Source: Escherichia coli
GTDB taxonomy: Bacteria; Pseudomonadota; Gammaproteobacteria; Enterobacterales; Enterobacteriaceae
DNA length: 64,000 nucleotides
Direction: 5' to 3' (one strand)
Assembly (NCBI RefSeq): GCF_013122565.1
Contig: NZ_CP053258.1
In this document: one piece after another, positions 3,006 through 63,935 of the stretch
Layout of the letters: each line of letters starts with the position of its first letter
Numbering within the stretch: the stretch's first letter is position 1
The notes under the pieces: generated by a model
Database searches by the model: none
What the model saw: only the letters and a program-made list of their open reading frames with translations
Told to the model about the DNA's origin: nothing
Position numbers and translations under genes: made by a program

Positions 3006-3061
3006 ATATGTGTTAATGAAACCTTCTTGACGCTGATTTTTTTTCAACCTAAAGTAAAGGA

Positions 3062-3210
3062 ACAAGGGTAAGGGAGGATTTCTCCCCCCTCTGATTGGCT
3101 GTTAATAAGCTGCGAAACTTACGAGTAACAACACAATCAGTATGATGACGAGCTTCATCATAACCCTTTCCTTATACAAGGCCCCTTCTTCGGGAGGGGC
3201 TTTCCCGTTT
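3062..3210 (+). ncRNA. sibE: Sib-type antisense sRNA (antitoxin of ibsE); ends approximate
   Basis: Promoter TTGACG (3027-3032), 17-bp spacer, TAAAGT (3050-3055); hairpin 3181-3200 plus T-tract; antisense to ibsE. Confidence 0.6.
3102..3161 (-). CDS. ibsE: Type I toxin Ibs family, 19-aa peptide MMKLVIILIVLLLVSFAAY
   Basis: Hand translation of the minus strand gives ATG ATG AAG CTC GTC ATC ATA CTG ATT GTG TTG TTA CTC GTA AGT TTC GCA GCT TAT TAA. Confidence 0.8.
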   Translation of the reverse strand: MMKLVIILIVLLLVSFAAY

Positions 3211-6635: not shown

Positions 6636-6644
6636 GAATCCGCT

Positions 6645-6795
6645 TATTCTCAGGGCGGGGCGAAATTCCCCACCGGCGGTAAATCAACTTGGTTGAAAGC
6701 CCGCGAGCGCTTTGAGTGCGAACTCAAAGGACAGCAGATCCGGTGTAATTCCGGGGCCGACGGTTAGAGTCCGGATGGGAGAGAGTAACGATTCT
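6645..6795 (+). promoter_or_regulatory. FMN riboswitch (RFN element) in the ribB leader; boundaries approximate
   Basis: Conserved RFN core: GGGCGGGGCGAAATTCCCCACCGGCGGTAAA...CCGGGGCCGACGGTTAGAGTCCGGATGGGAGAG upstream of ribB. Confidence 0.85.
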
Positions 6796-6893: not shown

Positions 6894-7547
6894 ATGAATC
6901 AGACGCTACTTTCCTCTTTTGGTACGCCTTTCGAACGTGTTGAAAATGCACTGGCTGCGCTGCGTGAAGGACGCGGTGTAATGGTGCTTGATGATGAAGA
7001 CCGTGAAAACGAAGGTGATATGATCTTCCCGGCAGAAACCATGACTGTTGAGCAGATGGCGCTGACCATTCGCCACGGTAGCGGTATTGTTTGCCTGTGC
7101 ATTACTGAAGATCGCCGTAAACAACTTGATCTGCCAATGATGGTAGAAAATAACACCAGCGCCTATGGCACCGGTTTTACCGTGACCATTGAAGCGGCTG
7201 AAGGTGTGACTACCGGTGTTTCTGCCGCTGACCGTATTACGACCGTTCGCGCAGCGATTGCCGATGGCGCAAAACCTTCTGATCTGAATCGCCCTGGCCA
7301 CGTTTTCCCACTTCGCGCGCAGGCAGGTGGTGTACTGACGCGTGGCGGTCATACTGAAGCGACTATTGATCTGATGACGCTGGCAGGCTTTAAACCGGCT
7401 GGTGTGCTGTGTGAGCTGACTAATGACGATGGCACGATGGCGCGTGCACCAGAGTGCATTGAGTTTGCCAATAAACACAATATGGCGCTCGTGACTATTG
7501 AAGACCTGGTGGCATACCGTCAGGCACATGAGCGTAAAGCCAGCTGA
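6894..7547 (+). CDS. ribB: 3,4-dihydroxy-2-butanone 4-phosphate synthase
   Basis: 217-aa ORF matching RibB as remembered ([17 protein letters not shown]). Confidence 0.95.
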
Positions 7548-46932: not shown

Positions 46933-47036
46933 ACGTTCCTCCTTTATATGAACTCACCGGAGCAGGCTCCGGTGAGGTGTTGTGAACTTAAGTCTGGACG
47001 AAATGCCCGAAAACGAAAGTTTGAGGCGTAAAAAGC

Positions 47037-52311: not shown

Positions 52312-52737
52312 ATGGCAATGCATCTTAACGAAAACCTCGATGATAACGGCGAAATGCATGATATCAACGTGACGCCGTTTATCGACGTGATGTTGGTTCT
52401 GCTGATTATCTTTATGGTGGCGGCACCGTTAGCGACGGTAGATGTGAAGGTGAACTTGCCTGCTTCTACCAGCACGCCGCAGCCGCGCCCGGAAAAACCG
52501 GTTTATCTGTCGGTGAAGGCAGACAACTCGATGTTTATCGGTAACGATCCGGTCACCGATGAAACAATGATTACGGCGTTGAATGCGTTAACCGAAGGCA
52601 AGAAAGACACCACCATCTTCTTCCGAGCGGATAAAACCGTCGATTACGAGACGTTGATGAAGGTAATGGATACGCTGCATCAGGCGGGTTACCTGAAGAT
52701 AGGTCTGGTCGGCGAAGAAACCGCCAAAGCGAAGTAA
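52312..52737 (+). CDS. exbD: TonB-system energiser ExbD
   Basis: 141-aa ORF immediately after exbB. Confidence 0.95.
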   Translation: MAMHLNENLDDNGEMHDINVTPFIDVMLVLLIIFMVAAPLATVDVKVNLPASTSTPQPRPEKPVYLSVKADNSMFIGNDPVTDETMITALNALTEGKKDTTIFFRADKTVDYETLMKVMDTLHQAGYLKIGLVGEETAKAK

Positions 52738-52743
52738 AGTAGA

Positions 52744-52962
52744 ATTGCCTGATGCGCTACGCTCATCAGGCCTACAAAATCTATTGCAACATGTTGAATC
52801 TTCGTGCGTTTGTAGGCCGGATAAGGCGTTCACGCCGCATCCGGCATTAGGGGCTCAATGCCTGATGCGCTACGCTCATCAGGCCTACAAAATCTATTGC
52901 AACATGTTGAATCTTCATGCGTTTGTAGGCGGATAAGGCGTTTTCGCCACATCAGGTAAGAG
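52744..52962. repeat. REP/BIME cluster: two tandem ~113-bp units, each with paired REP palindromes
   Basis: Repeated gcctgatgcgctacgctcatcaggcctaca and gtaggccggataaggcgtt...gccgcatccggca motifs. Confidence 0.85.
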
Positions 52963-53008
52963 TGAATTCACAATGATGCCCGGTTGCTTTTCACAACCGG
53001 GCATTTTT

Positions 53009-53893
53009 TTAACCTAAATGCTCGCCGCCGCACACGCCGTGCACTTCTGCGGTGACGTAGCTCGACTCCTGACTTGCCAGATAAACATATACAGGGGCCA
53101 GTTCCGCCGGTTGCCCCGCACGCTTCATCGGCGTTTGCTGACCAAACTGCGGGATCTTATCCTGCGTTTGTCCGCCGGAAATTTGCAGTGCTGTCCAGAT
53201 TGGGCCTGGCGCGACAATATTCACCCGAATACCTTTCTCTGCGACCTGTTTTGCCAGGCCACGGCTGTAGTTCAGAATTGCCGCCTTCGTAGCCGCATAG
53301 TCCAGTAAATGCGGGCTTGGCTGGTATGCCTGGATTGACGAAGTGGTGATGATACTTGCACCTTTCGGTAGCAGGGGGATCGCTTCCTGGGTTAGCCAGA
53401 ACAGCGCGAAAACGTTAATGGCAAAGGTCTTTTGAAACTGTTCGCTGGTGAGGTCTGCAATATCAGGAATGGCAACCTGTTTCCCGGCGACCAGCGCCAT
53501 AATATCCAGCCCGCCTAAGGCCTTATGCGCTTCGTGAACCAGCGAACGGGCAAATTTCTCATCGCTTAAATCGCCTGGCAGCAGAACGGCTTTGCGTCCG
53601 CATTCTTCAATGATCTTTTTCACATCCTGAGCGTCTTCTTCTTCCACGGGAAGATAACTGATCGCCACGTCAGCCCCTTCACGCGCGTAAGCGATGGCGG
53701 CAGCGCGACCGATTCCGGAATCGCCCCCTGTCACCAGGGCTTTACGATCTTTCAGGCGACCGCTACCAACATAGGTTTTCTCGCCGCAATCCGGTACCGG
53801 TGTCATCTTCGCCTGGATGCCTGGCGTCGGTTGTTTCTGTTTGGGATATTCACCAGTGTAATACTGCGTGGTCGGGTCTTTTAAATGAGACAT
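53009..53893 (-). CDS. yghA: Short-chain dehydrogenase/reductase YghA
   Basis: 294-aa ORF; Rossmann motif [10 protein letters not shown]. Confidence 0.9.
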
Positions 53894-60572: not shown

Positions 60573-62272
60573 GCCAGAGAATTACTATTGATCCGGTAAC
60601 CCGTATTGAGGGGCATTTACGCATCGATTGCGAAATCGAAAATGGCGTCGTTTCGAAAGCATGGGCTTCCGGTACCATGTGGCGCGGCATGGAAGAGATC
60701 GTGAAAAACCGCGATCCGCGCGATGCATGGATGATTGTGCAACGTATCTGTGGCGTATGTACTACCACTCACGCGCTGTCTTCCGTTCGTGCGGCAGAAA
60801 GTGCGCTGAATATCGACGTTCCGGTTAACGCGCAATACATCCGTAACATCATTCTGGCTGCGCACACCACGCATGACCATATCGTTCATTTCTATCAGCT
60901 TTCGGCGCTGGACTGGGTGGACATCACTTCTGCACTGCAAGCTGATCCAGCCAAAGCCTCCGAAATGCTGAAAGGTGTTTCGACCTGGCATCTGAACAGT
61001 CCGGAAGAGTTCACCAAAGTTCAGAACAAGATCAAAGATCTGGTTGCCAGCGGTCAGTTGGGTATTTTCGCCAATGGCTACTGGGGTCACCCGGCGATGA
61101 AACTGCCGCCGGAAGTGAACCTGATTGCGGTAGCGCACTACCTGCAAGCGCTGGAGTGCCAGCGTGACGCTAACCGCGTCGTGGCGCTGCTGGGCGGTAA
61201 AACGCCGCACATTCAGAACCTGGCGGTAGGTGGGGTCGCTAACCCGATCAACCTCGACGGTCTGGGCGTGCTGAACCTTGAGCGCCTGATGTACATCAAG
61301 TCTTTCATCGACAAGCTGAGCGACTTTGTTGAGCAGGTTTATAAGGTTGATACCGCCGTTATCGCCGCTTTCTACCCGGAATGGCTGACGCGCGGTAAAG
61401 GTGCAGTGAACTACCTGAGCGTGCCGGAGTTTCCAACCGACAGCAAAAACGGCAGCTTCCTGTTCCCGGGCGGCTACATTGAGAATGCGGATCTGTCCTC
61501 GTATCGTCCGATCACTTCTCATTCCGATGAATACCTGATTAAAGGCATTCAGGAGAGCGCGAAGCACTCCTGGTATAAAGACGAAGCGCCGCAGGCTCCG
61601 TGGGAAGGCACCACCATTCCGGCTTATGATGGTTGGTCTGACGACGGTAAATACTCCTGGGTGAAATCACCGACTTTCTACGGCAAAACGGTAGAAGTGG
61701 GTCCGCTGGCTAACATGCTGGTGAAACTGGCGGCAGGACGTGAGTCTACCCAGAACAAACTGAATGAAATCGTTGCGATTTATCAGAAACTGACTGGCAA
61801 CACGCTGGAAGTGTCACAGCTGCACTCCACGCTGGGCCGTATTATTGGTCGTACCGTTCACTGCTGCGAATTGCAGGATATCCTGCAAAATCAATACAGT
61901 GCACTGATCACCAATATCGGCAAAGGCGATCACACCACCTTCGTGAAACCGAACATTCCGGCAACGGGTGAGTTCAAAGGTGTTGGCTTCCTCGAAGCGC
62001 CGCGCGGTATGCTCTCTCACTGGATGGTGATCAAAGACGGTATCATCAGCAACTACCAGGCAGTTGTTCCATCAACCTGGAACTCTGGCCCGCGTAACTT
62101 CAATGATGACGTCGGTCCTTACGAGCAGTCGCTGGTGGGTACACCGGTTGCTGATCCGAATAAACCGCTGGAAGTGGTGCGTACCATTCACTCCTTCGAC
62201 CCGTGCATGGCCTGTGCGGTACACGTAGTGGATGCCGACGGCAACGAAGTGGTTTCAGTGAAGGTTCTGTAA
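60569..62272 (+). CDS. hybC: Hydrogenase-2 large [NiFe] subunit
   Basis: 567-aa ORF; N-terminal RICGVCTTTH and C-terminal DPCMACAVH nickel-binding motifs. Confidence 0.95.
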   Translation: MSQRITIDPVTRIEGHLRIDCEIENGVVSKAWASGTMWRGMEEIVKNRDPRDAWMIVQRICGVCTTTHALSSVRAAESALNIDVPVNAQYIRNIILAAHTTHDHIVHFYQLSALDWVDITSALQADPAKASEMLKGVSTWHLNSPEEFTKVQNKIKDLVASGQLGIFANGYWGHPAMKLPPEVNLIAVAHYLQALECQRDANRVVALLGGKTPHIQNLAVGGVANPINLDGLGVLNLERLMYIKSFIDKLSDFVEQVYKVDTAVIAAFYPEWLTRGKGAVNYLSVPEFPTDSKNGSFLFPGGYIENADLSSYRPITSHSDEYLIKGIQESAKHSWYKDEAPQAPWEGTTIPAYDGWSDDGKYSWVKSPTFYGKTVEVGPLANMLVKLAAGRESTQNKLNEIVAIYQKLTGNTLEVSQLHSTLGRIIGRTVHCCELQDILQNQYSALITNIGKGDHTTFVKPNIPATGEFKGVGFLEAPRGMLSHWMVIKDGIISNYQAVVPSTWNSGPRNFNDDVGPYEQSLVGTPVADPNKPLEVVRTIHSFDPCMACAVHVVDADGNEVVSVKVL

Positions 62273-63854: not shown

Positions 63855-63935
63855 GTAGGCCTGATAAGACGCGATAGCGTCGCATCAGGCATTGTGCTCG
63901 ATTGCCGGATGCGGCGTGAATGCCTTATCCGGCCT
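63855..63935. repeat. REP palindromic units downstream of hybG
   Basis: gtaggcctgataagacgcgatagcgtcgcatcaggc and gccggatgcggcgtgaatgccttatccggcc. Confidence 0.8.

Follow-up and report, generated by a model that had tools for sequence, protein, structure and literature searches.

The duplicated repeat between exbD and yghA of Escherichia coli is REP222 of K-12 (its EcoCyc name), an element already known and catalogued; its identity as a REP array is secure, and the class that fits it best is the atypical BIME. We consider it highly probable that this assignment, combined with the origin and the protection of mRNA 3' ends proposed below, is the best overall explanation of the site. Clusters of REPs and BIMEs belong to the textbook picture of intergenic DNA in E. 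coli. The array described here was found in a 64,000-nucleotide stretch of an E. coli chromosome (the window), in which metC, exbB and exbD are followed by the convergent yghA. In other complete E. coli genomes, the same site carries two units, one unit or none, and in some of them the array is interrupted by the insertion sequence IS621.

Results

Two tandem REP-pair units between exbD and yghA

A repeat search of the window revealed a direct repeat of 72 nt (52746-52817 and 52859-52930) with 71 identical positions (99%) at a spacing of 113 bp, which continues over a further 27 nt (52818-52844 and 52930-52956) at 85% identity. A match of 71/72 cannot be a product of chance in 64 kb. When the two complete units were aligned with MAFFT, they showed seven differences in the first 101 columns, two of them substitutions ahead of the y REP and the others, one deletion and four substitutions, inside it; the last ~12 columns of the alignment are non-homologous flank. 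Tandem Repeats Finder returned no rows for the array (1.97 copies), an empty output that does not outweigh the direct alignments, since the array holds only about two copies.

The four palindromes, scored against the canonical REP sequences quoted in PMC11208160 (Table 1), are footed by GTAG or CTAC, lie outside genes, between the stop codons of exbD and yghA, and are highly repeated. Their predicted hairpins have stabilities of about -15 to -16 kcal/mol for z1a and z1b and of -21 kcal/mol for y1, but of only about -9 kcal/mol for y2. The original prediction, made from the sequence of the window, had described two near-identical tandem units of ~113 bp with a pair of REP palindromes each, located between convergent genes. 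The self-alignment upholds the units and places them within a few bases of the predicted position, and the convergent orientation is borne out by the ORF list and by the matching records; as to the palindromes, the prediction stands for z1a, y1 and z1b, and needs correction for y2, which is decayed.

A 601-nt query over the site found matches in 5,425 of the 5,426 complete E. coli genomes, at no fewer than 182,029 places, with a median of at least 37 places per genome, so that the repeat is dispersed genome-wide. This dispersal, together with the matches to canonical REPs, confirms the proposed REP/BIME nature of the sequence. The closest match to the query came from strain C21 (99.5%), K-12 reaching 99.2%, and the arrays of MG1655 and of the window are separated by three substitutions. 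An entry "REP222, 5 REPs" is listed for exbB, exbD and yghA in PMC10100675; REP222 of K-12 occupies the same locus and has the same two-unit structure as the array of the window, in which we find four palindromes as compared to the five credited there.

Table 1. Features of the exbD-yghA region. Positions are those of the window unless a record is named.
Feature	Position	Strand	Basis or remark
exbD CDS	52312-52737	+	ORF list; stop TAA 52735-52737; same annotation in matching E. coli records
Segment in filled alleles, missing in empty-site alleles	52739-52971	.	233 bp, ends ambiguous by 1-2 nt; allele alignment
Repeat unit 1, 113 bp (z1 REP, L-like linker, y REP, head-to-head spacer)	52744-52856	+	Repeat search, MAFFT
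z1a, short z-type REP, CTAC at 3' end	52746-52775	+	28/30 vs canonical short z
Linker 1, diverged BIME-1 L motif, 36 nt	52776-52811	-	- strand reading AAACGCACGAAGATTCAACATGTTGCAATAGATTTT; PWM 16.6 bits
IHF-like core ATTCAACATGTTG in linker 1	52787-52799		Core match
y1, intact y-type REP, GTAG at 5' end	52812-52845	+	34/35 vs canonical y
Rfam naRNA4 (RF02564) match (y1, spacer, z1b)	52815-52885	+	65.5 bits vs gathering score 59.5
Head-to-head spacer ATTAGGGGCTCAA, 13 nt, unit 1 to unit 2	52846-52858	.	Length as S-type spacer
Repeat unit 2, 112 bp (z1 REP, L-like linker, decayed y REP)	52857-52968	+	Repeat search, MAFFT
z1b, short z-type REP	52859-52888	+	28/30 vs canonical short z
IS621 at ATCAGGCCT^AC in unit-2 z1	L003:1100-1330; L005:620-1925; L006:3019-3999		Equivalent to window 52878-52888
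Linker 2, diverged L motif, 36 nt	52889-52924	-	PWM 18.7 bits
IHF-like core in linker 2	52900-52912		Core match
y2, decayed y-type REP	52925-52956	+	30/35 vs canonical y; 4 substitutions + 1-nt deletion
exbBD intrinsic terminator, 12-bp stem then T7 run	52975-53012	+	Terminator scan; downstream of array
yghA CDS	53009-53893	-	ORF list and matching records; convergent with exbD

The linkers are diverged L motifs

A blastn search with the linker as the only query found no copies across E. coli genomes beyond the exbD-yghA locus, so homology to the L motif of BIMEs had to be shown with a profile. L motifs were sampled by scanning one genome per species for the pattern GGCCTAC-N28-40-GTAGGCCKGATAAG, which yielded at least 120 loci from E. 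albertii, Pseudocitrobacter, Citrobacter, E. coli and others, comprising at least 130 tail-to-tail linkers, at least 81 of them 35 nt long. The consensus of the sampled linkers (AAAATCGTGCAAATTCAATATATTGCAG...) has a y REP on the left, a short z REP on the right and conserved outer flanks. From 74 of the tail-to-tail linkers (E. albertii, Pseudocitrobacter, Citrobacter and E. coli), a position weight matrix (PWM) of 28 positions was built. The two linkers of the array account for two of the top three scores among the 127,944 28-mers of the window, a level reached by none of 50,000 shuffles, and their match has the right register and, with y on the left and z on the right, the orientation of the sampled motifs. 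Among true members of the family, which average 37 bits, 97% outscore them. Both linkers preserve an exact copy of the core ATTCAA-N4-TTG, which 53 of the 74 sampled members share. The profile is convincing only because the linkers match in exact register between CTAC and GTAG feet. A 28-mer at 61877-61904 (+) that has no adjacent REP feet scores 18.3 bits on the same matrix; this match is probably due to chance and illustrates the limited specificity of the PWM outside the REP register.

Judging from the sequence of the core, each L linker probably offers a site for IHF on the DNA, the affinity of which may be weak, given that the linkers score below nearly all true L motifs; the IHF binding named in the original prediction is thus plausible for this array. 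The simple IHF consensus WATCAANNNNTTR was set aside as an indicator: the linker matches it with one mismatch, which is weak on its own, as the window contains roughly one match of this kind per kb.

Classification of the array

BIME-1 elements combine z1 and y REPs with a long L linker, often with an IHF site, and occur as single copies; BIME-2 elements combine z2 and y REPs with short linkers in tandem copies; and atypical BIMEs are multi-copy chimeras of parts of both (PMC3333891). To tell the two z types apart, we relied on REP325, whose units consist of Y plus Z2 and form the basis of the Rfam naRNA4 model (PMC4550694). The alignment of this model to the array leaves a 7-nt gap in the model's Z2 hairpin; the short z is thus 7 nt shorter than the Z2 of naRNA4, and we therefore equate the long z with z2 and the short z of the array with z1. 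The short z also flanks the L motifs in the scanned sample.

With BIME-1 (RIP/RIB), the array shares the REP types, the tail-to-tail inversion of y and z1, the orientation of L and the IHF core, with linkers of 36 nt compared to the canonical 35 nt and with a sequence diverged into the lowest 3% of members. Canonical BIME-1 elements, however, are single copies with conserved outer motifs, whereas the array is made of two tandem copies, the flanks of which are unlike the conserved outer sequences. With BIME-2 and REP325, it shares tandem y/z units transcribed from an upstream gene, a match to the naRNA4 model and a tandem copy number that varies between strains (0, 1 or 2 units); it differs from them in its z1 REPs and its long tail-to-tail L linkers, BIME-2 having the longer z2, short linkers and the preference of gyrase. 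Being of BIME-1 composition, but duplicated and devoid of the outer A/B motifs, the array is therefore an atypical BIME, and its succession of z1, L, y, 13-nt spacer, z1, L and y, with a head-to-head spacer of S length and tandem copies, shows no substantive difference from that class.

Tandem REP pairs were also observed in other species of the scanned sample. In E. albertii (L014:6980-7477), four copies are repeated with a period of 147 bp, and all four linkers carry the L core; Pseudocitrobacter faecalis has three copies at 112 bp (L073:8831-9107) and two at 107 bp (L054:4432-4593), with linkers of approximately L length, as inferred for the former from the length of the match. A metagenome-assembled genome (MAG) labelled Desulfonatronum sp. 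(L049, SKYX01000059.1) contains a y/z REP pair of enterobacterial type, the tail-to-tail linker of which measures 35 nt; the pair may represent enterobacterial DNA contaminating the MAG bin. Beyond the REP elements, gathering-level Rfam matches in the window comprise two SIB RNAs (2651-2800 and 3027-3176, +), an FMN riboswitch (6642-6790, +) and the ES173 sRNA (46971-47034, -).

Presence, absence and copy number across strains

The locus-specific linker was found in 3,787 of the 5,426 complete E. coli genomes, at 7,464 places and with a median of two per genome. Two linkers are present in ~3,680 genomes (~68%), one in ~110 (~2%) and none in 1,639 (30%); an intact 601-bp locus or its one-unit form was recovered from 3,590 genomes. 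That the copy number varies between strains had been anticipated in the original prediction, and the survey bears this out with alleles of zero, one and two units as well as alleles interrupted by IS621. Carriers of the two-unit array include K-12 and O157:H7, and the empty alleles include those of ST131 and EC958, which belong to phylogroup B2. The extent of the segment concerned was defined by aligning the window with MG1655 and with one-unit and zero-unit alleles, the records of filled and empty loci spanning 601 and 368 bp, respectively. With 30% of strains devoid of the array, it is dispensable, and any function that it has for the host is non-essential.

In the allele alignment, the one-unit form corresponds to unit 2 preceded by the left flank of unit 1. 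As the y REP is intact in unit 1 and decayed in unit 2, this form is best read as a deletion and not as an ancestor from before the duplication; we infer that one-unit alleles arose secondarily, by deletion through the near-perfect repeat of 72 nt. A synthetic query of the order unit 1-unit 1-unit 2 retrieved no three-unit allele among its best 30 matches, all of which had the 601-bp span and aligned in two pieces. Up to four linker places were counted in at least one genome, which could reflect an allele of three or four units, duplication of a larger segment or an error of assembly.

Outside E. coli, the exbD-yghA region of Salmonella enterica (L127:1927-2039) holds a lone REP that differs from those of E. 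coli (GTAGGCCGGGTAAGGCGAAGTCGCCACCCGGC) and has a T-run after it, and in Citrobacter a REP-like palindrome stands at the 3' flank of exbD next to a different neighbouring gene. These REPs indicate that the 3' flank of exbD has been colonised repeatedly and independently in related genera; both loci have diverged too far to tell whether E. coli gained or lost the array. Among the loci obtained from the E. albertii type strain in the L-motif scan, exbD was not represented, which is weak evidence that the array is absent there.

The array as a target of IS621

Both z1 REPs contain the 11-mer ATCAGGCCTAC (52765-52775 in z1a and 52878-52888 in z1b), which is a naturally observed target of IS621 (PMC11208160). 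In strains FORC_041 and C7, this IS110-family element resides inside z1b (...CTTATCAGGCCT/TGTATTATCC...ACAGTATCT/ATAAAATC..., slashes marking the junctions), and records L003, L005 and L006 have it exactly at the target (...ATCAGGCCT/TGTATT...ACAGTATCT/A(T)AAAATC). As in natural IS621 targets, the 11-mer is present and the insertion follows its CT core. With a junction-specific query, we found at least 126 records with IS621 in unit 2 at 99% identity or more; ~915 further records match this query at 80-90%, and are presumably IS621 copies beside other L motifs elsewhere, to which junctions of the IS621 right end with the linker align at 86-90%. The number of genomes that have the linker but no intact locus is 197 (3,787 - 3,590).

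Transcription signals and RNA folding

The intrinsic terminator of exbBD is invariant in all four aligned alleles, filled and empty alike. It lies 3' of the array in the filled alleles and directly after the exbD stop codon in the empty ones (...GCGAAATAAAAATGATGCCCGG...), which makes the 233-bp segment part of the exbBD 3'UTR. On the opposite strand, the terminator hairpin is not followed by a U-tract, and a Rho-termination region has been mapped in MG1655 at 3151021 (+), antisense inside exbD and corresponding to about position 52530 (-) of the window (Adams et al. 2021, supplementary file 2). From these two observations it follows that transcription coming from yghA traverses the array, the Rho region implying transcripts that span the whole of it and extend into exbD antisense. 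Term-seq tables list no 3' end in the exbD-yghA intergenic region, possibly on account of discarded repeat reads or low expression. When compared to shuffled sequences, the region 52735-53015 folds with exceptional stability as RNA of either strand, at -109.2 kcal/mol (z -7.0) and -112.2 kcal/mol (z -7.8).

Discussion

For REPs and BIMEs in general, a wide range of functions has been proposed, including that of a barrier to exonucleases on mRNA, attenuation of transcription, targeting by insertion sequences and mobilisation by TnpA-REP, and further IHF binding for BIME-1, gyrase cleavage for BIME-2 and the production of HU-binding naRNAs. At the exbD-yghA site, we propose that a REP/BIME inserted and was subsequently duplicated, with the REP-associated Y1 transposase (TnpA-REP/RAYT) as one possible agent and recombination or slippage between REPs as the other, and that the distal y REP would have decayed after this duplication. 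The array would be transcribed into the 3' end of the exbBD mRNA and, by read-through of a hairpin which, on that strand, is not followed by a U-tract, also into the yghA mRNA. Its stable hairpins would impede 3'-to-5' exonucleases and thereby stabilise the upstream mRNA, leaving over REP-containing decay intermediates, for the removal of which RhlB, PNPase and RNase E would be needed.

Considering its position, the stability of its fold and the published data on yghA, the most likely effect of the array is to protect the 3' ends of the exbBD and yghA transcripts. REP-containing yghA transcripts have been observed at the REP222 locus, and both the full-length yghA RNA and an intermediate of ~300 nt were stabilised by fluoride-induced ATP depletion, by inactivation of RNase E and by truncation of the degradosome, in a 2023 study of one strain in which fluoride stabilised many transcripts with and without REPs (PMC10100675). 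The role of mRNA stabiliser, already suggested in the original prediction, is in line with this stabilised intermediate and with the location of the array upstream of the exbBD terminator.

Alternatively, the array might be purely selfish or neutral DNA that hitch-hikes at this site, without measurable consequences for exbBD, yghA or the structure of the chromosome. We regard this as possible, if on balance unlikely. It would agree with the absence of the array from some 30% of complete genomes in which the locus is otherwise unchanged, with the decay of y2, with the tolerance of both the deletion to one unit and the insertion of the 1.3-kb IS621, and with a linker sequence that is unique to the locus at the sensitivity of blastn. 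Against it speak the three hairpins, out of four, that have stayed intact and stable in most strains and the yghA decay intermediates containing REP222 that were seen experimentally (PMC10100675); moreover, hairpins that precede the terminator in a 3'UTR can hardly fail to affect exonucleolytic decay.

A more doubtful alternative is that the array down-regulates the synthesis of ExbD, by stalling ribosomes at a REP hairpin within 15 nt of the stop codon. Liang, Rudd and Deutscher reportedly found in 2015 that a REP near the stop stalls the terminating ribosome, with mRNA cleavage and trans-translation as the consequences. Translational down-regulation is associated with REPs within 15 nt of a stop codon, and the limit of <16 nt quoted in PMC12306157 includes the z1a stem, which starts 9 nt after the exbD TAA; so short a distance puts exbD among the candidates for translational control by a REP. 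However, empty alleles also have a hairpin in this position, their terminator starting ~4 nt after the stop, and a hairpin near the stop is therefore not specific to the array; furthermore, we did not find exbD named among the tested cases.

Still less probable, in our view, is a main role in DNA architecture or topology, through bending by IHF or cleavage by gyrase, or as an attenuator of transcription between exbBD and yghA that shields each of these convergent units from the other. Published reports describe BIMEs as binding sites for IHF and gyrase and as transcription attenuators, and the homology of the linkers to L motifs with conservation of the IHF core would suit an architectural site. 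The preference of gyrase, however, is documented for BIME-2 (y+z2), unlike the y+z1+L composition found here, and neither exbD nor yghA is mentioned in the supplementary files consulted for the gyrase Topo-Seq paper, so that the gyrase binding envisaged in the original prediction is not sustained for this array. As an insulator, the array would be inefficient, since transcription in the yghA direction passes through it and needs Rho inside exbD to stop; exbBD, in turn, is already served by a genuine intrinsic terminator.

We consider it very unlikely that processing of the exbBD 3'UTR releases from the array a naRNA4-like, nucleoid-associated non-coding RNA that binds HU. The Rfam match does lie on the exbBD sense strand and above the gathering score, and the naRNAs of REP325 are likewise made from the promoter of an upstream gene (PMC4550694). 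Yet the model is essentially y-spacer-z, on which any such REP pair scores: the other BIME of the window (63855-63934), composed of a long z (z2), a 13-nt spacer (63891-63903) and y, attains a higher score of 85.7 bits (-), which suggests that naRNA4 fires on generic y/z REP pairs. In addition, the z hairpin of the array falls 7 nt short of Z2, the array is absent in 30% of strains, and REP222 is not mentioned in PMC4550694 as a naRNA locus. Finally, a 63-aa ORF exists mechanically at 52745-52936 (+), but we reject a small-protein reading as next to impossible, the ORF having a TTG start and a frame built of REP palindromes, being unannotated in every RefSeq record inspected, and belonging to a segment that is dispensable, missing as a whole in 30% of genomes.

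The output of ExbB and ExbD, which energise TonB, could differ systematically between E. coli lineages on account of the array, a conjecture that we rate as improbable. Were it true, strains with two units would have a more stable exbBD 3' end, and might also show stalling of ribosomes at the exbD stop and possess two IHF sites spaced by 113 bp, all of which ST131-type strains would lack; the polymorphism would then amount to a cis-regulatory difference in the capacity for iron uptake, and not to neutral repeat turnover. For E. coli as a species, the exbD-yghA array provides a clean marker of presence or absence and of copy number between lineages, and constitutes a natural landing pad for IS621, an element mobilised by a bridge-RNA recombinase.
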